NCBI GenBank assembly: GCA_038064595.1
Contig: JBBTSV010000009.1
Location: 8,769 to 72,768 of the forward strand
Length of the DNA stretch: 64,000 bases
Reading direction: 5' to 3'
Origin: Patescibacteria group bacterium
Lineage (GTDB): Bacteria; Patescibacteriota; Minisyncoccia; Phycocordibacterales; Phycocordibacteraceae
The notes under the pieces are model-generated. The model did no database searches, was not told where the DNA came from, and was given only the letters and a program-made list of their open reading frames with translations. The position numbers were made by a program, and so were the translations under genes. Below are positions 1-64,000 of the stretch, piece by piece (position 1 is the stretch's first letter; each line of letters begins with the position of its first letter).

Positions 1-267
1 GTTGAGCTCTTGGAACGTGGGGTAGAGCTTGGCCAGCTCCTCGAGCTCAGTCGGACAAATAAAGGTGAAGTCAGCAGGATAGAAGACGAGTACTGTCCAC
101 TTGCCACGCAGCTTCGAGAAACTCATGGTGTGTATCGCACCCTTGTGATACACCTCAAATTCAAAATCGGGAGCAGACTCCCCCACCTTCACCAAGGAGA
201 GGTGGTCGTGCACAAAGTCGTGGAACTCACCACAGTGTTCACAATAGTTGCTCTTGGTCTCTTTCAT
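1..267 (-). CDS. Peroxiredoxin (AhpC/TSA family), N-terminal 89 aa; gene continues past window start
   Basis: Reverse-strand translation from ATG at 265-267 reads MKETKSNYCEHCGEFHDFVHDHLSLVKVGESAPDFEFEVYHKGAIHTMSFSKLRGKWTVLVFYPADFTFICPTELEEL. The FTF(I/V)CPTE motif is the Prx peroxidatic-Cys motif. ORF is open to the window edge. Confidence 0.7.
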   Translation of the reverse strand, partial: MKETKSNYCEHCGEFHDFVHDHLSLVKVGESAPDFEFEVYHKGAIHTMSFSKLRGKWTVLVFYPADFTFICPTELEELAKLYPTFQELN

Positions 268-313
268 ACAAATGGAGTTTTTATTGATAAGGTGTAAAAC
301 TAGTCTACACGGT

Positions 314-1180
314 ATGATGCGCAACGCCAAATCGCTCAAAATCCTCTGTATCGCCGGGCCGACCGCTTCGGGTAAGTCTCCGCGCGCGGTCGAGGAGGCG
401 CTTCTGCGCGAGGGCGAGATTATCTCGGTCGATTCACGCCAAGTCTACCGCGGGCTCGACATCGGGACCGAGAAGATCACTACCGAGGAGATGCGAGACG
501 TGCCGCACCACCTGATCGACATTCGTGAGGTACACGAGCCCTACTCTGCCGGCGACTTCGTCGCTGATGCGACGCGCCTAATTGAGGAAATCTCGGCGCG
601 CGGCAAGCTGCCGATCTTGGTAGGCGGAACGCACTTTTACTTTGACGCACTCCTCTTAGGGCTCCCTGCGGTAGAGGGTGATCCGATGCTGCGCGCAGAA
701 CTTGAAAAGCTCTCGACCGAGGAGCTTTTTGCGCGCGTCCGCTCCGCGGACGCGCGCAGAGCGAGCGAACTCGACCCCAAAAATCGTCGGCGCCTCATTC
801 GTGCGCTCGAAATAATCGCCTCCCTCGGCAGCGTCCCGTCCCGCGCTGTACCTACGCCCCCTTTTGGAACAAGGTTTAACCTTGTTGAATGGATCGTGAT
901 TGACCCCTCGAGAGAGGAGTTGCGGCCGCGCATTGACGCCCGGCTTGAGGCCGCGCTTGCGCGCGGCCTCGTCGACGAAGTGCGTCGTGTGCGCGAGCAG
1001 GTCGGCGACGCGCGCCTCAACGAGCTCGGGCTTGAGTATAAAATCGTAGGTGAATATCTGCGTAATGAGCGCAGTGAGGAGTCGCTCCTCCCCGCTCTCT
1101 CGAGCAAGCTCTGGCAGTATGCGCGTCGCCAGAAAGCCTGGCTGCGCAAACTCCAACTTGGGGGTCCGACCCCCAAGTAA
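314..1180 (+). CDS. miaA: tRNA dimethylallyltransferase
   Basis: ILCIAGPTASGKS P-loop, DSRQVYRGLDIGTEKIT, HHLIDI, GGTHFY: the canonical MiaA motif order. Start is taken at the internal MM just before the P-loop. The C-terminal LGGPTPK plus stop codon is encoded by the P1 palindrome. Confidence 0.85.
   Translation: MMRNAKSLKILCIAGPTASGKSPRAVEEALLREGEIISVDSRQVYRGLDIGTEKITTEEMRDVPHHLIDIREVHEPYSAGDFVADATRLIEEISARGKLPILVGGTHFYFDALLLGLPAVEGDPMLRAELEKLSTEELFARVRSADARRASELDPKNRRRLIRALEIIASLGSVPSRAVPTPPFGTRFNLVEWIVIDPSREELRPRIDARLEAALARGLVDEVRRVREQVGDARLNELGLEYKIVGEYLRNERSEESLLPALSSKLWQYARRQKAWLRKLQLGGPTPK
1157..1177. repeat. P1 palindromic element copy a (CTTGGGGGTCCGACCCCCAAG) forming the miaA 3' end and stop
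   Basis: Perfect 21-nt palindrome, identical to copies at 2350, 45442 and 57947. Confidence 0.9.
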
Positions 1181-1215
1181 ACGAATCGCCCCTCGCGGAG
1201 CAATCCGCGAGGGGG

Positions 1216-1485
1216 CTAGACCCTCTTGTCGATCTGAATCAGCAAGTCGTCGATCTGCTTTTTCATCACCTCAAAACGCTGTTTGGTGTCGGCCTGCGCC
1301 GCAAACTCCTGTTCGAGGGGCTCCAGGATGGTCTGCAGTATGCAGACGAGCTCTCGGAGCTTTTCTGTTCGCCTTCCTCTCATGGGTTGGTTGACCCATA
1401 CCAGGTTCTGAACATCGAGCTCCGCGACCGCGAAATTAACCGCGACCAGAGACTCGATGTGGATTAGGCAGTCCTTTGTCATCAT
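1216..1485 (-). CDS. Hypothetical small protein (89 aa)
   Basis: ORF starting MMTKDCLIHIESLVAV..., with an AAAGGAG Shine-Dalgarno sequence 5 nt upstream of the ATG on the minus strand (plus-strand ctccttt at 1491-1497). No recognisable family. Confidence 0.45.
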   Translation of the reverse strand: MMTKDCLIHIESLVAVNFAVAELDVQNLVWVNQPMRGRRTEKLRELVCILQTILEPLEQEFAAQADTKQRFEVMKKQIDDLLIQIDKRV

Positions 1486-1537
1486 GGTGCTCCTTTCGAG
1501 CATTGTTGGATCCGCTGTTTGTATAGCACAGGAGAAG

Positions 1538-1572
1538 TATAAAAACAAAAGGCCCGTCACAATCGACGGGCC
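1538..1572 (-). terminator. Intrinsic terminator (GGCCCGTC-acaatc-GACGGGCC followed by a T-tract on the minus strand)
   Basis: Perfect 8-bp GC-rich stem with a 6-nt loop, followed on the minus strand by TTTTGTTTTTAT. Confidence 0.75.
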
Positions 1573-1831
1573 TGGGCGGGGACGAGAACGATTGGTTTTG
1601 GGGACTACTTCCCCGGGGCTCCTCTGGCTGCCCATCGTTCTCGCCCCCGACTTACATTGCATCCACGCCAGAGGTGGATGGCTGCACGCCTCACTCGGCG
1701 TCCCGCGTCTACACAGCTCAAGAGCGGGTCGAGGCCTCACACAGACCTCGGAAGGGCTTGTTGGCTTATTACTCCTATCTCCACACCGGGAGAGACAGAG
1801 GAGCGGCTAAGCTCTGAAGGCAAACAAGCTA
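1546..1831 (-). ncRNA. Candidate structured ncRNA or riboswitch-like leader (about 290 nt), identity unknown
   Basis: Bounded by a TTGACA-16-TATACT promoter and a perfect intrinsic terminator on the minus strand. No credible ORF. Internal long-range complementarity (GGGGACGAGAACGAT at 1577-1591 with ATCGTTCTCGCCCCC at 1636-1650) and a nested hairpin GGGGA-ctact-TCCCC. No match recognised by eye to the tmRNA, RNase P, SRP or 6S consensus. Confidence 0.35.
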
Positions 1832-1836
1832 GTTCA

Positions 1837-1864
1837 AGTATACACTCCCCCACCCTTTTGTCAA
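1837..1864 (-). promoter_or_regulatory. Sigma-70-like promoter, TTGACA-16 nt-TATACT, minus strand
   Basis: Plus-strand tgtcaa at about 1859-1864 and agtata at about 1837-1842 give a perfect -35 and a 5/6 -10 on the minus strand. Confidence 0.55.
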
Positions 1865-1976
1865 CCCCCGTAAGTGGTTCTCCCCATCTGGCCCGCAAAA
1901 CGCAGTGCGCTGCTGCTGGTATGATATATCATACCTTTTTTCCCTGATCGACTTAGAGACCTACGATGTCCGTAGG
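1859..1976 (-). repeat. Promoter-containing repeated module, copy A (about 118 bp; includes the GGTATGATATATCATACC palindrome and a TACGATGTCCGTA motif)
   Basis: Near-identical to 44621-44737 from the -35 TTGAC through gcgttttgcg-gtgcgctgctgctggtatgatatatcatacctttt-ccctgatcgacttag-gac-tacgatgtcc. Confidence 0.8.
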
Positions 1977-2038
1977 TGGGAGTTATAAACACACAAGCCC
2001 ACACGGGGTGGGCTTGTTTTCGGCGCGAGAAGGGGCGA

Positions 2039-2263
2039 TCAATCGGCTGCTGCCTCTCCCACACGCTTGGCAAGCATGGCCAGATATTTCTGGTTGCCCG
2101 TGCCGCGGTTGTGGTCGAAGAAGATGCCGCATGCAGTGCAGCACTCGACCATCCCGATCTCGTACTGCCCACTGCCGCAGTTGGGGCACGGCGGCTTCGC
2201 CGTATCGAGCGGCGCGACGAGGGCCGCCAAGGCTGGCGGCACATTTGAAAACGGTGGTGGCAT
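2039..2263 (-). CDS. Putative zinc-ribbon small protein (74 aa)
   Basis: MPPPFSNV...CPNCGSGQYEIGMVECCTACGIFFD gives a CxxC-18-CxxC arrangement. AAGAAAGG Shine-Dalgarno sequence 8 nt upstream of the ATG on the minus strand. Confidence 0.4.
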   Translation of the reverse strand: MPPPFSNVPPALAALVAPLDTAKPPCPNCGSGQYEIGMVECCTACGIFFDHNRGTGNQKYLAMLAKRVGEAAAD

Positions 2264-2345
2264 GAAAGGACCTTTCTTGTTGTCAGGAGACATTCCCGAC
2301 CCAGACTCAAAGCTACCCTCCCTCCCCCACCCCGTCAAGAATTCC

Positions 2346-2374
2346 CCAACTTGGGGGTCCGACCCCCAAGTTGG
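2346..2374. repeat. P1 palindromic element copy b (extended 29-nt palindrome CCAACTTGGGGGTCCGACCCCCAAGTTGG), intergenic
   Basis: Perfect palindrome, immediately followed by GGGACTTACGATGTCCGTA, which supplies the stop codon of the next gene. Confidence 0.9.
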
Positions 2375-2377
2375 GAC

Positions 2378-2806
2378 TTACGATGTCCGTAGATTGCCGT
2401 TGCGGGATTTGAGGTACTTCCAGCCGATGAGGAGGAAAGAGACGACAGTCAGAACCTGCGCGGCGAGCCGCGCCGCGTCGTCTCGGTAGAATGGATAGAG
2501 ATCCATGAACCCGCCAGACGTGACGGGATTTGAGGCGATGAAAATAATCGAGAGTGGCACCGCCCACACTGCCAGCTTGAGCCAGGAGTTAAAAATGGGT
2601 CGGGAAATCAGGACCAAAATAATCGTGAGAGGTAGGAGGTAGAGAGAAAAATTATAGAATGGGTTTGTAAAGTACTGGTAGATATGGCTGACCCAATTGC
2701 TATAACATACTCCGTATGAATACATACACCAATAACTAAAGTGGGCAAATCCGACGCCAACCAGTGCGATGACGAGTGGCACACTCTGCATGAGTTTGTT
2801 TTTCAT
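2378..2806 (-). CDS. Hypothetical polytopic membrane protein (142 aa)
   Basis: Several hydrophobic helices, no recognisable family. The stop codon lies within the ACGATGTCCGTA motif. Confidence 0.5.
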   Translation of the reverse strand: MKNKLMQSVPLVIALVGVGFAHFSYWCMYSYGVCYSNWVSHIYQYFTNPFYNFSLYLLPLTIILVLISRPIFNSWLKLAVWAVPLSIIFIASNPVTSGGFMDLYPFYRDDAARLAAQVLTVVSFLLIGWKYLKSRNGNLRTS

Positions 2807-2812
2807 TTTTGG

Positions 2813-5800
2813 TCAAAAGAGTTTTTTGAATGCAGTCCAGAGTCCATACGCACCATTATAGACTGCCGCGCCCACCTTCTTGAGCCATGACTGTTGAGAG
2901 ACTGCGTCAAGAGCTGATGCTGTCTGCGGGACATTCACTGGTGCCTTTTTCACTGTCGTAGTAGCCACTGTTACTGTCTTCTTGGTTTGAGCTACCTTCT
3001 TAGTAGTCGTGCTCGTAGCGGGGGGATGAGTGATAACGGGGCTCAGAGCCACTGTCGCTGTCGTCGTAGCGATAACAGGAATGGAGATGGCGCCAGCGCC
3101 TCCGCCAGAGCTTGCCTCTGGTACTGGAGGGGCTTGAGCTGGAGGCTCGTAGCTCACGGTCTCACCGGCCTTAAAGCCAATCAAGAGATCCTCTCTCCCA
3201 TCTCCGTCCTCATCCACCCGGAGCGTAGAGGCTGTGTCGAGGCCGCCGGAGATGTTGAGTCTCACGCTCGTTTTGGGAGTCACGGGGACGTCTGCGATGC
3301 TGCTTGAGGTGGCCACCACCCCACCCACGCTCTCCTCAATGTCGAGTGTGAAGGTCCCAGTATCTTGACCATACAACGTGAGTTCATATCGGCCACTCTC
3401 GGGTACGATGAGGTATTTAAGCTCGCCGAGCTCTCCGTAGGTCGAGCTTGGGATGTCTTCTGTGACCGACCCGTCGACAGCAAGGCCGGTGATATTGCCG
3501 AGTGAGTCTGTGGCCTGGAGAGTGAGTGGTGAGTGGAGGAAAAAGATGAGTTTCTTTTCGGAGGTGGATTCTGGTTGAGTAACAGTGATGAAGTTTGGCA
3601 AAGGATCAGAACCCTCCCTAATACTGTTTTGAATAAAATCCTTTAGCAAAGGTATCTCAAAAAGATTTTTGTGATCAAATTTTGTTTTAGTGCCGGGAAT
3701 GTTATTGATCTTTGCCAAATCAACCCAATACCTCTTCACGGCTGTGCTGGAGGCCATCATGATCGCGCTCGGGACGGTGACGGTACCATCGCCGTCTTCG
3801 ACAAAGATGGGCTTGTAGAGACGCTTTGACTTCCCGGGAGGAGAGTAGAAATTGATCCCTGCGAGTGTGTCGATGCCCCACCCGGCGATCTGATCGACTT
3901 TTATGCCGTCTGGCGGGGTCCAGAAGTCGAGTGCCGCGTGCTGCCTATTTGCGTAGTCAATCAGATCGGCATTAAGAATCTCTGCAGACTTGACGTCTTT
4001 TTCTTCCGGCTTCTCTCGCCCACCCTCCTTGGCGAGAAGAAAGTCGGCGAGCGCGACACGGTTTGCTATCGTTGCGCCATATGCTGCAAACTCTTTGGTG
4101 TACCCATTTCCTGAAAAGCGTATGACCGGGTGCGCTGCATCTCCCATAGTGCTCTCAAGGTAGTACTCCGACGGGAGGAGGTGGTATGCCATAGGCGCAT
4201 TCTGTGCGAGCGCCCGAGCGGTCGCTTCGTGCACAATCGAGAACCCGAGAAACGAGATGCCTTGGTTGTATCCGTACAAAAGCGCCCCGATGCTCTCCGG
4301 GGCGCCGCTCTGCGGCGCCCCGACCATAATCACCTTGTCCACCAGCGTGGGAGCTGCACTCCCGAGCTTTTTCAAGAGCGCCTTGGCAAGAAGACCGCCA
4401 TTGCTGTGCGCGACAATTGTCACCTTTCCGCTCTTCGATGAGGCGGCGAGCCGACGTAACTCCTGCAGTACATACGGAGTCGATGTGGCTCGCAAGTCTC
4501 CGGAGTAGTAGATGCGGCCATCTTTATTGTTCCCATAGGCGAGAATGTCGTCGAGAGAAAGTCGCCAATCATAGGCGATCGGCTCCCAGTCGTTGATAGT
4601 CCCATCGGCTTTGAGCGCATCCATCTGTGCGACGAGCGAGTCGTAGATCTTCCCGCCGAAGGGGATCTCTTCTATCACATCGCGCTCTTTTGCGTAAATA
4701 TCAAAACGCGCGCTCGTGCCGTCGGCGTTGAGATAGAGGTCTTTCATATCCGTATCACCCGCAGGTTCCCAAAGCTTCTCCGTCCCGCCATCATAATCAG
4801 GACGATAGAGCCGGCTCCCCTCTATACCGGGCAGAAAGAGAACATTTGAGAAGCCTGAGGTCGCCACGCCCCACGACGTAAGCCAAGGTGAGAACTGGAC
4901 CGTACTTCCCGTGACATACTCGACTGCGTTACCCGTGCCGCCAAGATTATCCGGGTCGTTATAAGGGCCACTCACATCGCCCCAGAAATTGTCGGTGGCA
5001 TCGATCGTTGCGGCGACATGTACCACAAGCCCTCCTGAGGTGTTGTCCGCGATCTTGTTCTGCGAGAGCGTATACAAAGAATTTGTTCCGTACGTGCTTA
5101 TACCCGTGTCATTCTGCGTAATTTCAGTATTGGTAAGCGCCAGTTCATTCGAAAATTCAGGCCTCGACCCGTAATCGGCGACCCCCGCTCCGTACGGAAA
5201 CTCAGAAATAATCGAGTCTCGCATTTCTATTTTCCCACCGTTAAAGGTAACGAGCGCGTCCCCCGTGCCCCCGATCATGCGCACCCCAGTAAGCGCGAGG
5301 CGTGCATCAGCAACTTCTATCGCGTCAAAAGCATCGGTATTGGTTATAGTCGCATCCTGTACGGTGAGTGACGACTGATCGTAGACCGCTAGGGCTGGTC
5401 CGTCTGAGATGGTATCGAACCGCGCATCGCGCATTTCAATAGAGCTCTGGACAAAGGTCATGACCGCTCCAGAGCTGTCAGAAATAGAACGTATCGTTGA
5501 GCTTGCCACACGAGCGCTACTGCCCACGTATACCGCAATAACTTGAGAGGAAACACCCTCAGCAAGAAAGTCAGAGATTGATGCGTGGCTGTTCTGGTAG
5601 ATCTGGATGCCGAAGTCCACGTTGTGCAGCGTGACCTGTGCAAGTGTCGCAGTACTCCCATAGCTAAGCTCGACCGCGGCATCTAAGATACGCTCAAAAC
5701 GGGCACGCTCAAGAAAAAGAGTTCCTCCTGATACAAGGATCCCACGATCGCTATCCTTCACAACAGAGTCAGAAAAGGTGAGTGGGTTCTTGCTGTCGTC

Positions 5801-6169
5801 ACGGAGAGTAGAGAGGTGTTCAAATTCAACCCACCGAAACGTTGACGAAAGACTCCCTGCGTCGAGATGCAGTGACCATGACCCGCTCGGTGCCGTAAGT
5901 GCGATGGGCGCGTCTTCTGTTCCTTGTGCACTGATCGCGCCGTGCACCTTCAAGCTGCTCCCAGGGGCAAAGTGTACGACAACCTCCGGCTCAATTGAGA
6001 GTGTGACACCCGCACCAATCGACACCACACCCTCAACAAGGTACGGACTTCCCTCTTTGGTCCATGTCGTCGATTCTGAAATAGATTCAGCGACCAGAGT
6101 GTCAGCAAAAGCGGTACCTGCGCTTAAGAAAAAAACGCAGACGATGCCGGTGCATATTGCCGCCTTCAT
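2813..6169 (-). CDS. Large secreted protein (1118 aa): signal peptide, parallel beta-helix-like repeats, lipase/esterase-like alpha/beta-hydrolase segment, Pro/Thr-rich stalk
   Basis: N-terminal MKAAICTGIVCVFFLSAGTAFA signal peptide. Repetitive Ser/Thr/Asp/Gly beta-helix-like segments. VTIVAHSNGGLLAKALL GXSXG-type nucleophile elbow. C-terminal PPAQAPPVPE...TTTATVALSP low-complexity stalk. Confidence 0.8.
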   Translation of the reverse strand: MKAAICTGIVCVFFLSAGTAFADTLVAESISESTTWTKEGSPYLVEGVVSIGAGVTLSIEPEVVVHFAPGSSLKVHGAISAQGTEDAPIALTAPSGSWSLHLDAGSLSSTFRWVEFEHLSTLRDDSKNPLTFSDSVVKDSDRGILVSGGTLFLERARFERILDAAVELSYGSTATLAQVTLHNVDFGIQIYQNSHASISDFLAEGVSSQVIAVYVGSSARVASSTIRSISDSSGAVMTFVQSSIEMRDARFDTISDGPALAVYDQSSLTVQDATITNTDAFDAIEVADARLALTGVRMIGGTGDALVTFNGGKIEMRDSIISEFPYGAGVADYGSRPEFSNELALTNTEITQNDTGISTYGTNSLYTLSQNKIADNTSGGLVVHVAATIDATDNFWGDVSGPYNDPDNLGGTGNAVEYVTGSTVQFSPWLTSWGVATSGFSNVLFLPGIEGSRLYRPDYDGGTEKLWEPAGDTDMKDLYLNADGTSARFDIYAKERDVIEEIPFGGKIYDSLVAQMDALKADGTINDWEPIAYDWRLSLDDILAYGNNKDGRIYYSGDLRATSTPYVLQELRRLAASSKSGKVTIVAHSNGGLLAKALLKKLGSAAPTLVDKVIMVGAPQSGAPESIGALLYGYNQGISFLGFSIVHEATARALAQNAPMAYHLLPSEYYLESTMGDAAHPVIRFSGNGYTKEFAAYGATIANRVALADFLLAKEGGREKPEEKDVKSAEILNADLIDYANRQHAALDFWTPPDGIKVDQIAGWGIDTLAGINFYSPPGKSKRLYKPIFVEDGDGTVTVPSAIMMASSTAVKRYWVDLAKINNIPGTKTKFDHKNLFEIPLLKDFIQNSIREGSDPLPNFITVTQPESTSEKKLIFFLHSPLTLQATDSLGNITGLAVDGSVTEDIPSSTYGELGELKYLIVPESGRYELTLYGQDTGTFTLDIEESVGGVVATSSSIADVPVTPKTSVRLNISGGLDTASTLRVDEDGDGREDLLIGFKAGETVSYEPPAQAPPVPEASSGGGAGAISIPVIATTTATVALSPVITHPPATSTTTKKVAQTKKTVTVATTTVKKAPVNVPQTASALDAVSQQSWLKKVGAAVYNGAYGLWTAFKKLF

Positions 6170-6208
6170 AGGAAAGGGGGTATGCCACTATGGTATCATC
6201 TCCACATC

Positions 6209-7879
6209 ATGGGTACATCAGTGGAAGATCTGAAAGAATCGTTGCAGGGGGTGATGAGGGGGGAGGTGAAGGATGACGAGGCGAGCCGTAGAGCGGCGAG
6301 CCGAGATACCTCGCTCTTTGAGCGGATGCCGTCGCTCGTGGTCTGCCCTGCTGATGCGGAGGACGTGAGCGCGGTGGTGAAGGAGGTGCGGCGCGCCCGC
6401 GAAGCGGGCGCGGAGATCTCTCTCACTGCTCGTGCCGGAGGTACCGACATGTCGGGCGGCCCACTGACTACCAGTGTGGTCCTCTCACTCACCCAACACC
6501 TGAATCACATTGCCGAGGTTGGCAACGACTACGCGATAACTGAACCGGGAGTGTATTATCGCGACTTCGAGAAAGCGACCCTCGAGAAGGGTCTCATCCT
6601 CCCCTCCTACCCCGCGAGCCGCGAGATCGCTGCAATGGGCGGTATCGTCGCCAACAACTCCGCCGGCGAGCGTACGCTTGAGTATGGACAAACCGAGCGG
6701 TATATCGAGGAGATGGATGTCGTCCTCTCTGACGGCTCGACGGCCCACTTTGGCCCCCTCACCCCTACCGAGCTCGAAGAGAAAAAGGGCCTCCAGAATC
6801 TTGAGGGGGAGATCTACCGCACTATGGACACTCTCCTTGCCGAGAACGCTGCCTTAATAGAGGAGAAACGCCCCAAGGTGTCCAAGAATGCGGCCGGTTA
6901 TGGCCTCTGGCGCGTCAAGGATCCTGCCACCGGCACTTTCAACCTCGCCCAACTTATCTGCGGCTCGCAGGGCACCCTCGCGCTCTGGACGAAGGCAAAG
7001 CTCTCGCTCGTAAAGCCTAAGGAGCATCGCGCGATGCTCGTCATCTTTCTCCATGAGATGGGGCTCCTCCCTGAAATCGTACAGCGCGTCCTCCCACACA
7101 ACCCGGAGTCATTTGAGTCCTACGACGACCACACCTTCACGCTCGCGGTGAAGTTTCTCCCCCAGGTGCTCTCTCAAATGGGCTTTATCAAGGCAGCCAA
7201 GCTCGGGATAGATTTTCTCCCTGAAGCGGCGATGGTCGCCACCGGCGGGGTGCCGAAGATGATCCTCATGGCCGAGTTCTCCGATGACACGATCGAGGCG
7301 GCTGACGCGCGCGCCGAGGCGGCGCGCGTCGCTCTCGTCGACCTCAACCTCCAGATGAAAATCGAAAAGGATGAGAAGGAGTCGGAGAAGTATTGGATCG
7401 TTCGTCGCGAGAGCTTCAACCTGCTCCGTAAAAATGTCCACGGGCTCCACACAGCACCCTTCATCGACGACTTTGTCGTCCCACCCACAAGCTACTCTGA
7501 ATTTTTGCCAAAATTGAATGCGCTTCTCGCTGAGTACTCCTCTCACTTCATCTACACCGTCGCGGGACACGTGGGTAACGGCAACTTCCATATCATCCCG
7601 CTCATGGATCTCACCAAAGAAGAGAATCGCCAGGTGATCCTCGATCTCGCGCCGCGCGTCTACGAGCTGGTGATTAAAGAAGGCGGCACCACCACCGGCG
7701 AGCACAACGACGGCATTATCCGCACCCCGTATCTCCCGATGCTCTTTGGCGAAGAGATGGTCGCGCTCTTTGAAAAGACGAAGAAAGTCTTTGACCCGCT
7801 CAACATTTTTAATCCTGGGAAAAAGGTCGGGGGCGTCTTCGAAGATATAAAAAGAGACATGCTGAAATCAGTGACTTGA
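6209..7879 (+). CDS. FAD-linked oxidase (GlcD / D-lactate dehydrogenase family)
   Basis: FAD-binding PCMH-like N-terminal domain (VVCPADAEDVSAVVKEVRRAREAGAEISLTARAGGTDMSGGP) and a C-terminal FAD-oxidase_C-like region. Start taken at the internal MGTSVEDL; the ORF extends to 6182. Confidence 0.7.
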   Translation: MGTSVEDLKESLQGVMRGEVKDDEASRRAASRDTSLFERMPSLVVCPADAEDVSAVVKEVRRAREAGAEISLTARAGGTDMSGGPLTTSVVLSLTQHLNHIAEVGNDYAITEPGVYYRDFEKATLEKGLILPSYPASREIAAMGGIVANNSAGERTLEYGQTERYIEEMDVVLSDGSTAHFGPLTPTELEEKKGLQNLEGEIYRTMDTLLAENAALIEEKRPKVSKNAAGYGLWRVKDPATGTFNLAQLICGSQGTLALWTKAKLSLVKPKEHRAMLVIFLHEMGLLPEIVQRVLPHNPESFESYDDHTFTLAVKFLPQVLSQMGFIKAAKLGIDFLPEAAMVATGGVPKMILMAEFSDDTIEAADARAEAARVALVDLNLQMKIEKDEKESEKYWIVRRESFNLLRKNVHGLHTAPFIDDFVVPPTSYSEFLPKLNALLAEYSSHFIYTVAGHVGNGNFHIIPLMDLTKEENRQVILDLAPRVYELVIKEGGTTTGEHNDGIIRTPYLPMLFGEEMVALFEKTKKVFDPLNIFNPGKKVGGVFEDIKRDMLKSVT

Positions 7880-8570
7880 AACAGCAAAGGCGCCCGTAGG
7901 CGCCTTTGATTTTGTGCATCGCGTCGATACATCAGTGCGCGGCTGCCCGCGCAATAATGCTCTCTGCAAGCCGGGGGGTGAGCTCAAGGAGTAGCAGCCG
8001 CGCGCGCATACTCTGCGAACGCATGAGTAGGTCGATGTTCTGCGGATGCAGCGCACACGACTGACACACACGACACGGGAGGGTGCACTCACTGCCGGGA
8101 CAGCTTGGGGAGGATATTTCCTCGCCCACCGGGAGCCTTTTGGTCGCAGCCATACTACGACCTCAACCCTGAACGTTGCCCGCGCTCTGCGGGTGCACGT
8201 TCCAGGCACTCCTGCCGCAGACGCGCGCCATATCGTGGCTTCTCGGCGAGAAGCCCGAGTCGGCGTTTGCGTCGCTCTGCCCGTGCCTGCTCAAAGAGCT
8301 CCGGTTCTTGGACCTCCAGCGGCTCGCTGGGAGGAACGTAGTCAAACACATGGTTCCGCATCTCACACTCCTTGGTTGTTGTTGTCCGAGCCCTCGGTAT
8401 GGGCTCGACGTTTTTGATACTACGCCTTCATTCTAAAAAGACAATCCGCTGTGCACAGAGCACAGAGTCTGCTACTATACTCCGCATATGAAACGCGCTT
8501 TCGCCATCGTTATTGTCGTCCTCCTTGTGCTCGGGATGATCGGGAGTCTCCTGCCAACCTTTTTTATTAG

Positions 8571-46580: not shown

Positions 46581-48581
46581 ATGTCGGCAGACGCATCTCT
46601 CGAAGGCCCCATCGTCATGACCCGCAAGGGCTTTGGCTTCTTCCCCTTGGGCGACGATCAAGAAGACCTCCTGATCCCGCCGGAGTGGACCGGCCACGCG
46701 CTCTCAGGCGACGTGGTCAAGGTCGAGCGTGTCGGGACCTATCAAGACCCTTCAGGCCGGATGGCTCCGAGGGAGGCTGGGAAGGTGGTCGAGATCGTCT
46801 CGCGCGCTCGAGAGACATTTGTCGGCACTCTTATTGCCCCGACGCCAGAAGTCGGGGTCCCGACCGAAGCGTCGGGAAAGAGTGAGATCACATTGCTCCA
46901 GTGTGACTATAAGAAGATGTATGTGCCGATTGTCATACTCGACCGCGGTGATGCACCGCTCGGCTACAAGGTGCTTGTGCGCCTGGTAAGCTGGGAGGCC
47001 GACAAAGCGTATCCCCTCGGCGAGATTGAAGAAGTGATCGGCCCCGCAGGAAATCATGAGACCGAGATGCGCTCGCTCGCACTTGGGCAGGGGTTCAGGA
47101 GCGACTTCCCTCCTGGCGTCGTCACAGCAGCACGGGATCTCGAGATGCGCGGTCGGCAGATGCTCGCGGACGAAGCCGAGAATCCCAAACGACGTGATTT
47201 TAGAAAAGTACCGACCTGCACCATCGACCCCTTTGATGCCAAAGACTTTGACGATGCCCTCTCGGTGCAGACCTTGCCCGATGGAAACATTGAAGTGGGC
47301 GTGCACATCGCCGACGTCTCCTTTTTTGTGAAGCCCGGCAACGAGCTCGACAAAGAGGCGCGTGAACGGGCCACGAGTGTCTACCTCGTCGACCGCACGA
47401 TCCCGATGCTCCCCCACATTCTCTCCACCGACCTCTGTTCACTCAATCCCAATGAAGATCGTCTGTCGGTCTCGGCAGTGTTCACGCTCGATACGGATGC
47501 AAACATTGTGAATGAATGGTTCGGCGAAACGGTGATTCACTCTGATAAACGCTTCACGTATGAGAATGCACAAGAGGTGCTCGATGCCGGAAAAGGCGAG
47601 CTTCATGCTGAACTCTCGCTCCTCTACGACCTCTCGAAGAAGATCCGCACGCGCCGCCAAGAGAAGGGGGCGATCGAGTTCGACACCGCTGAAGTCAAAA
47701 TCGAACTCGATGAGACGGGTAAACCAATCGCAATAAAACTCAAAGAGCGCAAAGCGACCAATCTCCTCATTGAAGATTTTATGCTCCTTGCCAACGAGGC
47801 CGTCGCCAAGCACTTGAATAAGCTCACCCGTAACGGCGGCCCCCACTTCGCCTCGCTCTACCGTATCCACGACGAGCCGGACTCTGACCGCATCGAGAAC
47901 CTCGCACACCTCCTGCGCGTCATGGGCTATCACCTGAAAACTGCCGGCGGCAAGGTCACCGGCGCAGAACTGAACAAACTCATGGAGTCGGTCAAGGGCA
48001 CGCCCGAGGAATACCTGGTCAAGACCGCGACCCTGCGCTCGATGAGTAAGGCGGTCTACACGACCCGCAACATTGGCCACTTTGGTCTGGCGTTTGAGTT
48101 CTATACTCACTTCACCTCCCCGATCCGTCGTTATCCCGACCTTATCATCCACCGCTTGGTGAAGGCGCACAGCGGCGGCGACCCTATCACGCCCGCGGAG
48201 ATGCAGGAGTTTGACCGGCTCGCGGTGCACGCCTCGGAGCGCGAGGTGGCGGCCGCCGACGCCGAACGTGATTCTATCAAGATGAAGCAGGTTGAATTTC
48301 TCGCGGAACATATCGGCGAGACCTTTGACGCCGTGATCTCGGGCGTGACCGAGCGCGGCCTCTACGTAGAAGAGCAGACCACCCACGCCGACGGCATGAT
48401 CAACATCCGCGTCCTCGGCGAGCTCCCGGATCAGGTGGGTGATTACTTCGACTTCGAAGAAAAACAGTACAGGCTCGTCGGCCGTCGGACCAAGAAGAGC
48501 TACCGTCTCGGCGACCCCATCCGCGTGAAGCTCATCGCCGCCCGTATTGCCGAAAAAGAGCTCGACTTCCTCCCCGCCTAA
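46581..48581 (+). CDS. rnr: Ribonuclease R (RNB family 3'-5' exoribonuclease)
   Basis: Cold-shock-like N-terminus; RNB catalytic motifs (DPFDAKDFDDALS, GHFGLAFEFYTHFTSPIRRYPDL); C-terminal S1 domain. In-frame E2 element near the N-terminus (EVGVPTEASGKS). Confidence 0.9.
   Translation: MSADASLEGPIVMTRKGFGFFPLGDDQEDLLIPPEWTGHALSGDVVKVERVGTYQDPSGRMAPREAGKVVEIVSRARETFVGTLIAPTPEVGVPTEASGKSEITLLQCDYKKMYVPIVILDRGDAPLGYKVLVRLVSWEADKAYPLGEIEEVIGPAGNHETEMRSLALGQGFRSDFPPGVVTAARDLEMRGRQMLADEAENPKRRDFRKVPTCTIDPFDAKDFDDALSVQTLPDGNIEVGVHIADVSFFVKPGNELDKEARERATSVYLVDRTIPMLPHILSTDLCSLNPNEDRLSVSAVFTLDTDANIVNEWFGETVIHSDKRFTYENAQEVLDAGKGELHAELSLLYDLSKKIRTRRQEKGAIEFDTAEVKIELDETGKPIAIKLKERKATNLLIEDFMLLANEAVAKHLNKLTRNGGPHFASLYRIHDEPDSDRIENLAHLLRVMGYHLKTAGGKVTGAELNKLMESVKGTPEEYLVKTATLRSMSKAVYTTRNIGHFGLAFEFYTHFTSPIRRYPDLIIHRLVKAHSGGDPITPAEMQEFDRLAVHASEREVAAADAERDSIKMKQVEFLAEHIGETFDAVISGVTERGLYVEEQTTHADGMINIRVLGELPDQVGDYFDFEEKQYRLVGRRTKKSYRLGDPIRVKLIAARIAEKELDFLPA
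46838..46877. repeat. E2 nested-palindrome element copy 4, in frame in rnr
   Basis: ccccgacgccagaagtcggggtcccgaccgaagcgtcggg. Confidence 0.8.
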
Positions 48582-60000: not shown

Positions 60001-63000
60001 TTAGGCTCCGAGGACGGCGAGGGCGCGGGCGAGGGCGAGCTTCGCACCGGTCACGCCCGTTGAATAACTTGAGTCAATCGCATTACTCAAAGAAGAGATA
60101 AGCTTCTCCAGGGTCGGAGTGTCGAGGCGAGCTGTGAGCCGCGCAATGTCGGGCGCACAGGGCGTGCCGTCAACACGCGCGCGGTACGCGTCATCGAGGA
60201 GACATGCGGTGGCCGAGAGAAGCTCTTCTGCAGCTCCTCCTCCCCGTACTTCTTGACGCAGCCCCGCGAAGACCGCCGTGCGATCACCCTCAATAAGCGC
60301 AGCGACAAAGCCGCGCACTGATGCCGGGGCCGCACTCTCTGGTACCAACGCTACTGCTGGGGTCTCCGCAACAACCGGCTCTACGTTCTCGTAGATCGGC
60401 TCTACATTTTCATATATTGGCTCAACATTCTGGTGTTCCTTCGCCGCCGCCGCGCTCGCATGACGACGAGAGAGACCTTTCACAATATCGTCGATCGAAA
60501 GCGATCCTCCTTCAGCAAACGACTTAAAGCCGTCATAGGTCGAGTAGGTACGAGGTGCGTCTGACGCGGGTGGAGGTGTGTGTTGAGGTTGAGGCGTTGG
60601 AGCCGGCGAAGCAGAGGCGGCAAGAGCCACGGTAGGAGCTGACTCAGATGAATTAAGAACGGTGTGAATCCGAGCACCAAACATGCGGAATTGGCGATTC
60701 GTAAAGGGTACTGCCCGGAAGAGAATAAGATAGGCAACCGCAAGCGCCCACATGATAAGCGCTAGCCAATAGAGCGTCGTTCCGAGGGGTCCGAGAGAGA
60801 GACCAGTCTGTGGAATCTGCGCGAGGTAGAGGTACGCAAGCGACTGTGCTTGTGGAAATACTGCAAGACTCACTGTGGGTGGCGGCGCACTGCCACCGCC
60901 ACCGCCACTAGGCGGCGGTTGCCCACAGTTTCCGCTACAACCACCGCCGCCACCCGACGAGTCAACAATGAGTGCTGTCGAACAGGTGACGGTTTGCCCG
61001 TTCGTCCCTGTGAACGTGCCCACATAGGTGTACGTCTGTGCGTTGGTCGGCGAAACTCTTGTCGAACTCGGGATAGTGGTGGTCGCGCCGATACCGTTAT
61101 CTATCGTTACACTTTGGACATTAGTGCCGCCCCACGAAAGGGTCGCGCTGCCACCGGTCGTATAGCGCGTTGGCGAGAGGCTCATCGTACAGGTCGGCGC
61201 GGGCGGAGTGGTCGTCACCGTGACAGTTGCCGAGCATACTGCTGATGCACCCGAGGCGCCGGTTACCGTACCGGTATACGTTGTCGTTGTAGTCGGAGTG
61301 GTCGATGTCGCACCTGACACTATCGAGGTCACTGCACCGATCCCTTGGTTAATCGAGAAGGCAGTAGCGTTGCTGGTATTCCACGAAAGAGTCGAGGTTG
61401 CACCCTGCTGAATTGCGGCCGGGGTCGCCGTGAGGGTACAGGTCGGTGCCGGAGGAGTAACTGAGACCGTCACCGTATCCGCACACGTCACAGTACCGCC
61501 CGGACCCGTTGCGGTGCCGCTATAGATGGTGGTCGCGGTTGGTGTGACCGAGCGAGAACCGCCCGCAAGAGGAGTCACTGATCCCACACCACGATCGATA
61601 GTGAATGAGGTGGTGTTGGTGGTGGTCCACGCGAGACTGGAGGCAGTGCCTTCGACAATCGTCTTGGGAGACGCGGTGAGGGTGCAGGTGGGGGCGGGGT
61701 GGTCAGTAACGGCCACGGTGTCAGCACAGGTATTGGTCAACCCATTTGCTCCGGTCACGGTGCCGGTGTACGTGGTCGTCACGCTCGGTGAGACCGAGCG
61801 GGAACCGCCAACAACGGGGGTCACAGAACCAATCCCCTGGCTGAGGGAGATGGATGTCGCATTGGTCGTCGTCCATGCAAGTGAAGAAGCTGCGCCGTTG
61901 AGTATGGATGCGGGAGACGCCGTGAGGGTACAGCTCGGGACCGGCACTGCCGTCACCGTCACGGTGGCGGTACATGGTGTGGAACCTCCCGGACCCGTTG
62001 CGGTGCCGCTATAGATGGTCGTCGTTGAGGGTGAGACCGAACGAGAGCCGGCAGCGACTGGCGTCACCGAACCAACGGCGTGATCAATGACAAATGAGGT
62101 GGCGTTGGTGGTAGTCCACTCAAGTGAAGATGCCGAACCGGTTTGAATGATGGAGGGAGATGCGGTGAGGGTGCAGGTGGGTGCGGGAGGGGGTGTCACC
62201 GTGATCGTTCTGCTGCAGGTATCTGAACCGCCTGCGCCCGTCACGGTGCCGGTGTACGTGGTCGTCACGCTCGGTGAGACCGAGCGAGAACCACCAATAA
62301 CGGGTGTCACGGAGCCAATCCCCTGATTGAGGGAGATGGATGTCGCATTTGCCGTGTCCCAGGAGAGGGTGGTTGAGGATCCGGCTTCAATGGAGAGCGC
62401 TGATGCAGTGAGTACGCACGTGGGAGGAGGAGGTGGAGGAAGTGGCGTCACCGTCACCGTATCCGCACACGTCACAGTACCGCCCGGACCCGTTGCGGTG
62501 CCGCTATAGATGGTGGTCGCGGTTGGTGTGACCGAGCGAGAACCGCCCGCAAGAGGAGTCACTGATCCCACACCACGATCGATAGTGAATGAGGTGGTGT
62601 TGGTGGTGGTCCACGCGAGACTGGAGGCAGTGCCTTCGACAATCGTCTTGGGAGACGCGGTGAGGGTGCAGGTGGGGGCGGGGTGGTCAGTAACGGCCAC
62701 GGTGTCAGCACAGGTATTGGTCAACCCATTTGCTCCGGTCACGGTGCCGGTGTACGTGGTCGTCACGCTCGGTGAGACCGAGCGGGAACCGCCAACAACG
62801 GGGGTCACAGAACCAATCCCCTGGCTGAGGGAGATGGATGTCGCATTGGTCGTCGTCCATGCAAGTGAAGAAGCTGCGCCGTTGAGTATGGATGCGGGAG
62901 ACGCCGTGAGGGTACAGCTCGGGACCGGCACTGCCGTCACCGTCACGGTGGCGGTACATGGTGTGGAACCTCCCGGACCCGTTGCGGTGCCGCTATAGAT

Positions 63001-64000
63001 GGTCGTCGTTGAGGGTGAGACCGAACGAGAGCCGGCAGCGACTGGCGTCACCGAACCAACGGCGTGATCAATGACAAATGAGGTGGCGTTGGTGGTAGTC
63101 CACTCAAGTGAAGATGCCGAACCGGTTTGAATGATGGAGGGAGATGCGGTGAGGGTGCAGGTGGGTGCGGGAGGGGGTGTCACCGTGATCGTTCTGCTGC
63201 AGGTATCTGAACCGCCTGCGCCCGTCACGGTGCCGGTGTACGTGGTCGTCACGCTCGGTGAGACCGAGCGAGAACCACCAATAACGGGTGTCACGGAGCC
63301 AATCCCCTGATTGAGGGAGATGGATGTCGCATTTGCCGTGTCCCAGGAGAGGGTGGTTGAGGATCCGGCTTCAATGGAGAGCGCTGAGGCGTTCAGCACA
63401 CAGGTGGGTGCGGGAGCGGGCGGAGGCGGGGCCGTCACGGTGATCGTTGCGACGCAAGAATTTGAACCGAAAGCGCCGACCGCGGTACCCGTGTAGGTGG
63501 TCGTAACGGTGGGCGAAACCGTTTGTGAACCGGATCCCGTGAGAAAGAGACCGACTATTTTATCGATAAAGAAGAGGGTGGAGTTGGTCGTCGTCCACGA
63601 GAGCACAGCGCTCGATCCCTCCTCTATGGTCGTAGGAGATGCGGTAAACGTACAGGACGGATCCGGAGAAGGAAACGCGCACCCGCCAAGGTAGGTAACG
63701 TCCCAGGTGCAGCTGTTGCGCGTCCATGACGCCATACCAACGGTAGCGCCAGCAGGGATACCGTACTGACCAGCCCAGTCGGCGCAGGCGACTGGATCTT
63801 GTGGAATCTCGTTTGGTACGCACGCCGGAGGTGGCTCGGTGCAGCCGCCCGTGTACGTTACGTCCCAGGTGCAGCTATTGCGCGTCCAAGAAGCCATGCC
63901 GACCGTGGCGTTCGCTGGGATACCGTACTGACCAGCCCAGTCGGAACACGCAACTGGCTCTTGTGTGATTTCAGTTGGTACGCACGCCGGAGGTGGCTCG
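60001..64000 (-). CDS. Giant cell-surface protein with tandem Ig-like repeats, 5'-partial (over 1330 aa in window)
   Basis: At least 12 repeats of about 95 aa (TCTLTASP..I..G.SS.L.WTTTNATS..I..G.GSVTP..GGSRSVSP..TTTY.GT.TG.GG...C..T.TVT). Three N-terminal MASWTRNSCTWDVTY modules. Gly-rich linker, one transmembrane helix (LGPLGTTLYWLALIMWALAVAYLILF), and a roughly 340-aa cytoplasmic tail containing an NVEPIYE x3 repeat. The ORF is open at the window end. Confidence 0.85.
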   Translation of the reverse strand, partial: EPPPACVPTEITQEPVACSDWAGQYGIPANATVGMASWTRNSCTWDVTYTGGCTEPPPACVPNEIPQDPVACADWAGQYGIPAGATVGMASWTRNSCTWDVTYLGGCAFPSPDPSCTFTASPTTIEEGSSAVLSWTTTNSTLFFIDKIVGLFLTGSGSQTVSPTVTTTYTGTAVGAFGSNSCVATITVTAPPPPAPAPTCVLNASALSIEAGSSTTLSWDTANATSISLNQGIGSVTPVIGGSRSVSPSVTTTYTGTVTGAGGSDTCSRTITVTPPPAPTCTLTASPSIIQTGSASSLEWTTTNATSFVIDHAVGSVTPVAAGSRSVSPSTTTIYSGTATGPGGSTPCTATVTVTAVPVPSCTLTASPASILNGAASSLAWTTTNATSISLSQGIGSVTPVVGGSRSVSPSVTTTYTGTVTGANGLTNTCADTVAVTDHPAPTCTLTASPKTIVEGTASSLAWTTTNTTSFTIDRGVGSVTPLAGGSRSVTPTATTIYSGTATGPGGTVTCADTVTVTPLPPPPPPTCVLTASALSIEAGSSTTLSWDTANATSISLNQGIGSVTPVIGGSRSVSPSVTTTYTGTVTGAGGSDTCSRTITVTPPPAPTCTLTASPSIIQTGSASSLEWTTTNATSFVIDHAVGSVTPVAAGSRSVSPSTTTIYSGTATGPGGSTPCTATVTVTAVPVPSCTLTASPASILNGAASSLAWTTTNATSISLSQGIGSVTPVVGGSRSVSPSVTTTYTGTVTGANGLTNTCADTVAVTDHPAPTCTLTASPKTIVEGTASSLAWTTTNTTSFTIDRGVGSVTPLAGGSRSVTPTATTIYSGTATGPGGTVTCADTVTVSVTPPAPTCTLTATPAAIQQGATSTLSWNTSNATAFSINQGIGAVTSIVSGATSTTPTTTTTYTGTVTGASGASAVCSATVTVTTTPPAPTCTMSLSPTRYTTGGSATLSWGGTNVQSVTIDNGIGATTTIPSSTRVSPTNAQTYTYVGTFTGTNGQTVTCSTALIVDSSGGGGGCSGNCGQPPPSGGGGGSAPPPTVSLAVFPQAQSLAYLYLAQIPQTGLSLGPLGTTLYWLALIMWALAVAYLILFRAVPFTNRQFRMFGARIHTVLNSSESAPTVALAASASPAPTPQPQHTPPPASDAPRTYSTYDGFKSFAEGGSLSIDDIVKGLSRRHASAAAAKEHQNVEPIYENVEPIYENVEPVVAETPAVALVPESAAPASVRGFVAALIEGDRTAVFAGLRQEVRGGGAAEELLSATACLLDDAYRARVDGTPCAPDIARLTARLDTPTLEKLISSLSNAIDSSYSTGVTGAKLALARALAVLGA
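61468..63435. repeat. Perfect tandem duplication (2 x 984 bp, identical over about 930 bp) inside the giant surface-protein gene
   Basis: 61468-62400 is identical to 62452-63384; the encoded 162-aa and 84-aa alternative-frame ORFs are also identical. Confidence 0.9.

Follow-up and report, generated by a model that had tools for sequence, protein, structure and literature searches.

A probable stand-alone structured RNA gene of about 290 nt in groundwater Kaiserbacteria

Introduction

What is made from the roughly 290 nucleotides (nt) that lie, without annotation, between a consensus-like promoter and a terminator in the DNA of a Patescibacteria group bacterium: a noncoding RNA (ncRNA) in its own right, or the leader of the gene that follows? 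The window analyzed here is a 64,000-nt stretch (positions 8,769 to 72,768 of contig JBBTSV010000009.1, assembly GCA_038064595.1); the element that it contains is called W, and all window coordinates are read on the minus strand unless stated otherwise. A preliminary description of this DNA had proposed both answers, an unannotated ncRNA or a riboswitch-like, attenuator-type leader of an 89-amino acid (aa) gene beyond the terminator. The comparison with related genomes described below favors the first: W is very probably an independent structured ncRNA gene, and we consider it likely that this gene stands alone, is transcribed separately, encodes a trans-acting RNA of about 290 nt and belongs to a new family in the Kaiserbacteria.

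The genomes of Patescibacteria, also called the Candidate Phyla Radiation (CPR), are about 1 Mb in size and hold very little noncoding DNA. To our knowledge, almost nothing is known of their regulatory or structural RNAs beyond ribosomal RNA, transfer RNA (tRNA) and the universal ribonucleoproteins (RNPs), and a search of the literature on structured RNAs of CPR/Patescibacteria returned nothing relevant.

The element is bounded by a near-consensus promoter and an intrinsic terminator

The promoter of W (1837..1864) is composed of a −35 element TTGACA (1864-1859), a 16-nt spacer and a −10 element TATACT (1842-1837), which together agree with the sigma-70 consensus at 11 of 12 positions, and a run of G residues (GGGGGTTGACAAA) precedes the −35 element. 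A lenient promoter scan performed at chance level, with three promoters found in 6 kb and 2.8 expected. The stricter pattern TTGAC-N(15-18)-TATAnT had a single match within the whole window, which was the W promoter, and eight matches across the window and loci L011-L096, indicating that near-consensus sigma-70 promoters are very rare in this DNA. The intrinsic terminator (1540..1573) has a 10-bp GC-rich stem at 1573..1550, AGGCCCGTC-GATTGT-GACGGGCCT in DNA letters, followed by TTTTGTTTTT; the corresponding RNA reads GGCCCGUC-GAUUGU-GACGGGCC and then UUUUGUUUUU. From the spacing to the −10 element and the position of the U-tract, we infer a transcript of about 290 nt (1540..1830) that would start at A1830 or G1829, at the conserved sequence (UA)GCUUGUU, and end within the U-tract.

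All elements of the preliminary description were found within 1-2 nt of where it had placed them, including the terminator about 290 nt downstream of the promoter and a 15-bp long-range stem, which the computed fold places at 1634-1648 paired with 1578-1592 and which had been given as 1636-1650 with 1577-1591. A 299-nt stretch of W folded with a free energy of −135.7 kcal/mol, compared with −107.1 ± 5.1 kcal/mol for dinucleotide shuffles (z = −5.64; none of 200 shuffles was as good). No tandem repeat was found inside the RNA or near it.

The RNA is present in four other Kaiserbacteria genomes

Because the protein encoded downstream of W is an ORFan (see below), the search for homologues was anchored on the conserved neighbors MiaA and a flavin adenine dinucleotide (FAD) oxidase. 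Exact protein matches put the window on a 139.6-kb contig from Hainich groundwater (well H41, 0.1-µm filter fraction), and several Logan assemblies hold identical copies. Relatives of MiaA (window 314-1180, plus strand) number in the hundreds at 74-82% identity and bear the names Patescibacteria, Kaiserbacteria, Paceibacterota or Minisyncoccota, which places the organism in the Kaiserbacteria group of the CPR. The MiaA anchor gave 80 GTDB loci, and searching these by sequence and by pattern, together with inspection, revealed three members: L055 (5147..4875, minus strand), which was detected by nhmmer at E = 2e-13, is 59% identical to W (161 of 273 aligned positions) and has the same promoter and terminator; L025 (approximately 6716..7008, plus strand); and L069 (approximately 2655..2350, minus strand). 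Among five loci looked up through relatives of the FAD oxidase, L171 carried the RNA (approximately 3526..3222, minus strand) as in the window, between miaA and the FAD oxidase gene, and L167, L170, L172 and L173 did not. The RNA was likewise not found in the closer MiaA relatives P0005, P0006 and P0010, which have other genes downstream. It is thus known in at least five groundwater Kaiserbacteria genomes, W and four others.

All five members share the promoter GGG(G)TTGACAAA (with the −35 element GTGACA in L069), a −10 element that reads TATACT, TATAAT or TACAAT, a length of 270-310 nt, and a GC-rich terminator hairpin with a U-tract. The 5' end is (UA)GCUUGUU(C)GG in four of the five, and GUUGGUU takes the place of GCUUGUU in L171. 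In 764 kb of Kaiserbacteria DNA, the pattern GG[TG]TGACA[AT] was found at eight sites, of which five are the promoters of the RNAs; the tRNA genes of the same loci have no such promoter. Near-consensus promoters in L046, L085 and L172 were considered as further members and set aside, as protein genes and not this RNA follow them.

With each member as a query, nhmmer linked only W and L055 over the body of the RNA, and the remaining matches (to L025, E = 0.06-0.19) spanned the promoter and the 5' end only. A covariance model, R2, that had been trained only on the 3' domains of W, L055 and L069 was then used to search 744 kb. Its best matches outside the training set were in L025 (30.4 bits, E = 9e-4) and L171 (24.4 bits, E = 0.017), both exactly at the 3' ends predicted from the promoters, and the rest were no better than E = 0.6. 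Viral contigs gave no match to the 5' motif; a generic hairpin pattern matched 17 times there, which we assume to be chance. No match was found by blastn in phage and plasmid collections, and the family appears to be rare.

The element has no codon signal, and its helices are maintained by compensatory changes

The view that no plausible open reading frame (ORF) lies inside the element needs qualification, as overlapping ORFs can be called mechanically (for example, a 174-aa GTG extension of the downstream gene). These ORFs are not conserved, and the part of the claim that matters stood up in the alignment of W with L055, where mismatches were spread evenly over the three codon phases (38, 36 and 38), with no codon periodicity, and the insertions and deletions (5, 5, 7, 2, 4, 3 and 1 nt) were mostly not multiples of three. 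The same two sequences gave an RNAalifold consensus energy of −53.2, compared with −34.8 ± 4.8 for column shuffles with unchanged patterns of gaps and identities (z = −3.84; 0 of 300). Each of the five members also folded better than its own shuffles (z = −5.6, −3.0, −3.0, −2.5 and −2.1).

From 5' to 3', the RNA is composed of a domain H1 closed by helix P1, a variable middle, the sequence GCAGCC followed by hairpin H5, a long hairpin H6, and the terminator. H1 (1756..1829) starts with P1 (GCUUGUU/AACAAGC) at the very 5' end of the RNA, and inner helices lead up to an apical hairpin bearing UCUCCCGGUGUGG; the counterparts of this loop are UCUCCCGGUACAG in L025, UCUCCGGUACAG in L069 and UCUCUCGAGCAG in L055, and the motif UCUC(C)CGGU(A/G) is common to W, L025 and L069. 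The middle section evolves fast and has two or three hairpins. In the H5 module (1661..1685), GCAGCC, which is invariant in W, L055, L069 and L171 (four of five members), precedes the hairpin AUCCAC-CUCUGGC-GUGGAU. The H5 loop is CUCUGGC in W and CCUAGCC, CCUCCUGGAC, CCCUAGC or UUCU in other members, the loops being roughly alike (CCUnCUGG / CCUAGC). H6 (1578..1648) has the outer helix of about 15 bp described above, two apical sub-hairpins and a conserved strand GUCCCCAAAAC-AAUCG. In all five members, the minimum free energy and centroid folds consist of local hairpins in a row, with both ends of the RNA unpaired.

A check for covariation, which the preliminary description had suggested, was made across the five members. 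Stems were tabulated by hand, since four-sequence MAFFT alignments were not structure-consistent. P1 persists in all five, GCUUGUU pairing with AACAAGC, AGCAAGC or GACAAGC; L171 has two compensatory pairs (GUUGGUU/AACCAAC), L055, L069 and L025 have U-A to U-G changes, and two basal pairs are lost in L025. The H5 stem differs in sequence in each member and is always 5-6 bp long; in A12, four of the six pairs were changed on both sides. The outer helix of H6 is 100% paired in W, L055 and L069, and when L025 is included, compensatory columns read C-G/U-A, A-U/G-C and C-G/U-G/A-U. In an alignment of the 3' domains of W, L055 and L069, which was model-guided and leans towards the structure derived from W, 93.8% of the cells were paired and 10 of 38 pairs were changed on both sides, a result that none of 500 shuffles reached; when the 3' partners were slid by 1-3 columns, at most two pairs were changed on both sides. 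Helices P1, H5 and H6 are thus maintained by compensatory substitutions, as seen in three to five sequences with part of the alignment fitted to a model.

Elsewhere in the window, a weak covariance-model match (21.8 bits, E = 0.07) was noted at 46790-46862 on the minus strand, where an H5-like hairpin, CCCCGAC-UUCUGGC-GUCGGGG, is followed by GCAAU. It lies antisense inside a 666-aa ORF and is probably due to chance.

No known RNA family matches the element

A search of the whole window against Rfam 15 with cmscan returned no match of any family at the gathering threshold. With the 651 nt at 1400-2050 and a cutoff of E ≤ 10, the only matches were sub-threshold and to unrelated microRNA, small RNA (sRNA), long ncRNA and frameshift-element models, and the homologues in L055, L069, L025 and L171 gave no consistent family match at E ≤ 5. 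W is thus not a known family that annotation had missed, and the earlier impression that it does not fit the consensus of transfer-messenger RNA (tmRNA), RNase P RNA, signal recognition particle (SRP) RNA or 6S RNA was borne out. tmRNA has a tRNA-like acceptor/T-arm domain and a tag reading frame; ARAGORN detected neither tRNA nor tmRNA in the 64 kb, and no Rfam tmRNA model matched. SRP RNA is marked by a domain IV hairpin with a GNAR tetraloop and conserved symmetric and asymmetric loops. At E ≤ 10 there was no match to Bacteria_small_SRP or large_SRP, to RNaseP_bact_a/b, or to RF00013, and none of the five folds has the end-closing stem of 6S RNA or its central bubble, a mimic of an open promoter. 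Bacterial RNase P RNA has conserved P4 pseudoknot strands (GGAAAGUCCGG ... ACAGAAnnCGGCUUA) and a P1 pairing of its ends; a P4-like string in W, GUAAGUCGGGGGC, belongs to the local hairpin H6 and has no conserved counterpart in L055.

Several other assignments were considered and rejected. A Hammerhead_1 match in L171 (14.5 bits, at the CUGACGAG string) lacks stem II and is absent from the other members. A guide or accessory RNA (omega-RNA, bridge RNA, retron msr-msd, tracrRNA or TIGR array) was rejected, as no partner gene (IscB/TnpB, IS110 recombinase, reverse transcriptase, Cas or Tas) adjoins the RNA and there is no repeat array. About six GGA triplets in 290 nt, counted by eye, are close to the expectation from composition and do not make W a CsrB-like sponge, and ATCCAC, which could be read as part of a DnaA box or oriC, is not conserved in L055. 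No riboswitch aptamer or T-box core was found with Rfam 15 at E ≤ 10.

Among well-studied RNAs, RsaE/RoxS and RNAIII of Staphylococcus aureus are stand-alone sRNAs of Hfq-independent bacteria with C-rich apical loops. W resembles RsaE/RoxS and the hairpins of RNAIII in having its own sigma-70/sigA-type promoter, an intrinsic terminator, an intergenic site and several stable hairpins, and its loops are also pyrimidine-rich (UCUCCCGG, CCUCUGG) and would complement ribosome-binding sites of the GGAG type. It differs in being longer (~290 nt) than RsaE/RoxS and in having loops that are not uniform across its members, and it shows neither sequence or covariance-model similarity nor target enrichment. 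The RNA polymerase binders 6S RNA and Ms1 (approximately 180-300 nt) are alike in size, in poor sequence conservation and in presumed high expression from a strong promoter, whereas W has no long rod with a central bubble and its ends are unpaired. Terminator-type riboswitches and T-box leaders have the order seen in the window only (promoter, ~290-nt RNA, terminator, Shine-Dalgarno (SD) sequence, ORF), but the gene association is not conserved, being absent in two of the five genomes, and no aptamer or T-box model matches. The orphan RNAs of the raiA, HEARO, ROOL and OLE type are likewise lineage-restricted, multi-helix RNAs recognized only by conservation and covariation; in contrast to them, W matches no Rfam 15 model, is smaller than ROOL, GOLLD or OLE, and has no IscB (as in HEARO) or raiA alongside. 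What it shares with trans-encoded sRNA or ncRNA genes in general is its own promoter and Rho-independent terminator in all five loci while the neighbors change. The family is new and absent from Rfam 15, and its kind is ordinary, that of an orphan structured bacterial ncRNA gene.

Genes around the RNA differ from genome to genome

The gene downstream of W in the window (1216..1482, minus strand) lies outside the RNA element, between the RNA and the convergent miaA. As described earlier, it has a strong SD sequence (AAAGGAG) and starts about 55 nt past the U-tract, with ATGATG at 1485/1482 giving a product of 88 or 89 aa. The 88-aa protein had no relative in the GTDB representatives, found only itself among 5.8 billion clustered proteins and had no Pfam match, and its gene is absent from the other four loci; the protein is a species-level ORFan, probably a coiled coil. 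No promoter of this gene passed the scan, a weak candidate (TTGTTT-17-TATACA) was seen by eye, and the gene may be reached by read-through or by its own weak promoter.

At the L055 locus, the RNA stands alone between the convergent miaA (ORF 3929-4882, plus strand) and the divergent FAD oxidase gene (5271-6935, plus strand), and its terminator abuts the miaA stop codon. The L025 locus (pilin-like 338-aa gene, tRNA, RNA, AAA-kinase-like gene) is unlike the miaA to FAD-oxidase position of the other four; here the RNA comes after a tRNA gene on the same strand (6516-6586, approximately 100 nt upstream of the RNA promoter) and terminates against the convergent AAA-kinase-like gene. L069 and L171 have co-directional downstream genes, encoding a sigma70_r4-domain protein and a 127-aa protein, respectively, and in L171 a promoter-like sequence, TTGACC-15-TATATA, was seen by eye between the terminator and that gene. 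The downstream proteins of the five loci showed no similarity to the 88-aa ORFan or to one another, and Pfam scans of the neighbors returned only MiaA, the FAD oxidase, a beta-helix/LCAT protein, sigma70_r4, AAA and proteins without assignment.

The interval from miaA to the FAD oxidase gene is variable among Kaiserbacteria and holds 0 to 4 small or unassigned genes. Around the RNA, its content is p88, RNA, p74, p142 and an 1118-aa protein in the window; p123, p127, RNA and p67 in L171; the sigma70_r4 protein, RNA and a beta-helix protein in L069; the RNA alone in L055; and no RNA in L172. The further genes of the window interval (within 1-7900) encode a 74-aa zinc-ribbon-like, a 142-aa membrane and an 1118-aa beta-helix/LCAT-domain protein.

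A perfect 18-nt palindrome, GGTATGATATATCATACC, is present at 1918-1935 of the window, 55 nt upstream of the −35 element, and, with TTTTTT after it on the plus strand, resembles a terminator of that strand. In at least five independent runs, Logan contigs have one of their ends within the palindrome (overlap 1910-1934), suggesting a recombination junction or variation between strains. None of the other four genomes has the palindrome upstream of the RNA. At the far end of the window, imperfect tandem repeats (61495-63333; periods of 243 and 489 nt, 63-74% matches) were noted inside a 1298-aa ORF (60001-63897, minus strand), the product of which is presumably a repeat-domain surface protein.

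Discussion

A leader should keep its gene, and the gene downstream of this RNA changes each time; we therefore regard it as very unlikely that W is a riboswitch or attenuator controlling the 88-aa gene in cis through conditional termination at 1573-1540, and the corresponding part of the preliminary description did not survive the comparison. The layout of the window fits such a leader (promoter, structured RNA, terminator, 55 nt, strong SD sequence, ORF), in L069 and L171, too, the terminator is followed by a co-directional gene, and the 88-aa gene, for which no promoter passed the scan, may depend on read-through. However, the downstream genes share no similarity, that of the window being an ORFan, the RNAs of L055 and L025 end against a convergent gene and so have nothing to regulate, and the downstream gene of L171 has the promoter-like sequence of its own. 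Nor was a segment complementary to the 5' arm of the terminator (GGCCCGUC) obvious upstream, as judged by eye, and no riboswitch or T-box model of Rfam matched at E ≤ 10. The attenuator-like layout is explained if the ORFan lies downstream of a pre-existing RNA gene. Just as improbable, in our estimation, is that W is a housekeeping RNA (6S, RNase P, SRP or tmRNA) so diverged in CPR that the curated models fail to recognize it. The strong conserved promoter, a size typical of stable RNAs and the syntenic position would suit it, no other stable RNA, not even a tRNA, was detected in the window, and 6S RNAs are known for poor sequence conservation. The searches against Rfam were negative for W (E ≤ 10) and its homologues (E ≤ 5), ARAGORN was negative for the window, the unpaired ends leave no room for a 6S rod, a tRNA-like acceptor or the P1 of RNase P, and the P4-like string is not conserved in L055; moreover, a housekeeping RNA should not be missing at this site from close relatives or diverge so fast.

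That the RNA is a component or marker of a variable genomic islet, acting with the small variable genes around it (for example, as an antitoxin, guide or defense-associated RNA, or as a stable-RNA gene that serves as an integration hot spot), is unlikely. The gene content differs between genomes on both sides of the RNA, L172 has no RNA at all, and independent Logan assemblies break at the palindrome upstream of the promoter. Yet no reverse transcriptase, transposase, Cas, IscB/TnpB, integrase or toxin domain adjoins the RNA in any of the five loci, accessory genes are absent around the RNA of L055, tandem repeats are absent inside the RNA, the phage and plasmid collections gave no match, and the viral contigs gave none to the 5' motif. 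It is also quite improbable that there is no function at the level of RNA, the promoter and terminator being kept for another reason, such as transcriptional insulation between convergent and divergent genes, around a GC-rich spacer that folds by virtue of its composition. The promoter is indeed the best conserved part, the body drifts quickly, and the family is rare and dispensable at this site in most relatives. What argues against a mere spacer is that length (270-310 nt), domain order and helices have been preserved, the helices through compensatory changes and with 94% of the 3' domain paired, that the consensus fold beats column shuffles, and that GCUUGUU, GCAGCC and UCUCCCGGUA are conserved within otherwise diverged RNAs. 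In addition, genomes of about 1 Mb rarely retain 300 nt of useless spacer.

The reading that we prefer, a separately transcribed structured RNA acting in trans, has several observations to contend with. The covariation statistics partly rest on alignments fitted to the W-derived structure, and they are weak because there are only five members, three of which are too diverged for nhmmer to link them pairwise over the RNA body. Part of the R2 signal is generic, since the model also gives 31.8 bits, in a smaller search, to an unrelated hairpin-plus-terminator at L003 5728-5834. The RNA was not found in approximately 85 other Kaiserbacteria loci (within 4 kb on either side of miaA or the FAD oxidase gene), L172 keeps miaA-p68-FAD oxidase yet has no RNA at the syntenic site, and a scan of Joint Genome Institute metagenomes with TTGACA-N16-TATACT-N4-8-GCTTGTT gave 53 matches at the level of chance, none of them family-like. 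Matches to the complement of the H1 loop number 26 in the window, where 23.7 are expected, and thus show no enrichment, no target or partner was found, and the best site for this loop in the window (29290) is inside a coding region. The loop motifs vary between members, with L055 and L171 departing from the others. Finally, the ends and the abundance of the transcript are predicted from sequence signals, and conservation is higher in the promoter than in the transcript, a difference that a trans-acting RNA leaves without explanation.

The L003 match deserves a remark of its own. It lies on the same contig as the window, about 1.25 kb past the left end, at the 3' end of a 139-aa gene, and is a long hairpin followed by GCAGGCCCCG...CGGGGCC. 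A hairpin with a GCAGGCCCC terminator may be a common design of 3' ends in these genomes.

If W is a stand-alone RNA gene, its transcription would begin at the strong near-consensus sigma-70 promoter and stop at the intrinsic terminator that it carries, and the RNA, judging from these signals, would be abundant and work in trans, not as a cis-regulatory leader. The helices may serve as a scaffold only, in which case their drift through compensatory changes would be accounted for. Contacts could be made by the unpaired conserved H1 loop (UCUCCCGGUA), the H5 loop CCUnCUGG and the GCAGCC junction, and the partner may be either G-rich, SD-like sites in mRNA, bound by base-pairing, or a protein, the two being about equally possible. 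Because the pyrimidine-rich loops are complementary to GGAG-type sequences, pairing with ribosome-binding sites would be our first guess; we propose the detail of loop-mediated base-pairing tentatively, as something that may well prove otherwise.

The locus carries a caution for the reading of single genomes, in which a promoter, a structured RNA, a terminator, an SD sequence and an ORF in a row can mimic a riboswitch; here, comparison across genomes exposes the downstream gene as an unrelated, recently acquired ORFan. Five species are known to have the RNA, and most relatives lack it at this site; unless a wider survey alters the picture, so narrow a distribution restricts how general its significance is, and we regard the interest of the RNA as moderate, that of a good candidate that so far has no functional handle. 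A more far-reaching possibility, to which we give rather less credence than to its being false, is that W represents a hitherto unrecognized class of abundant structured RNAs of about 300 nt specific to Kaiserbacteria-type CPR and having a new partner or function. If so, its gene would have the strongest promoter of the neighborhood, the RNA might, for example, form an RNP peculiar to the lineage or act as a global regulator, and the RNA gene may double as a hot spot for the insertion of small accessory genes. In any case, an RNA of 290 nt that is conserved and has an unusually strong promoter offers a concrete and testable candidate in a lineage whose ncRNAs are unexplored.

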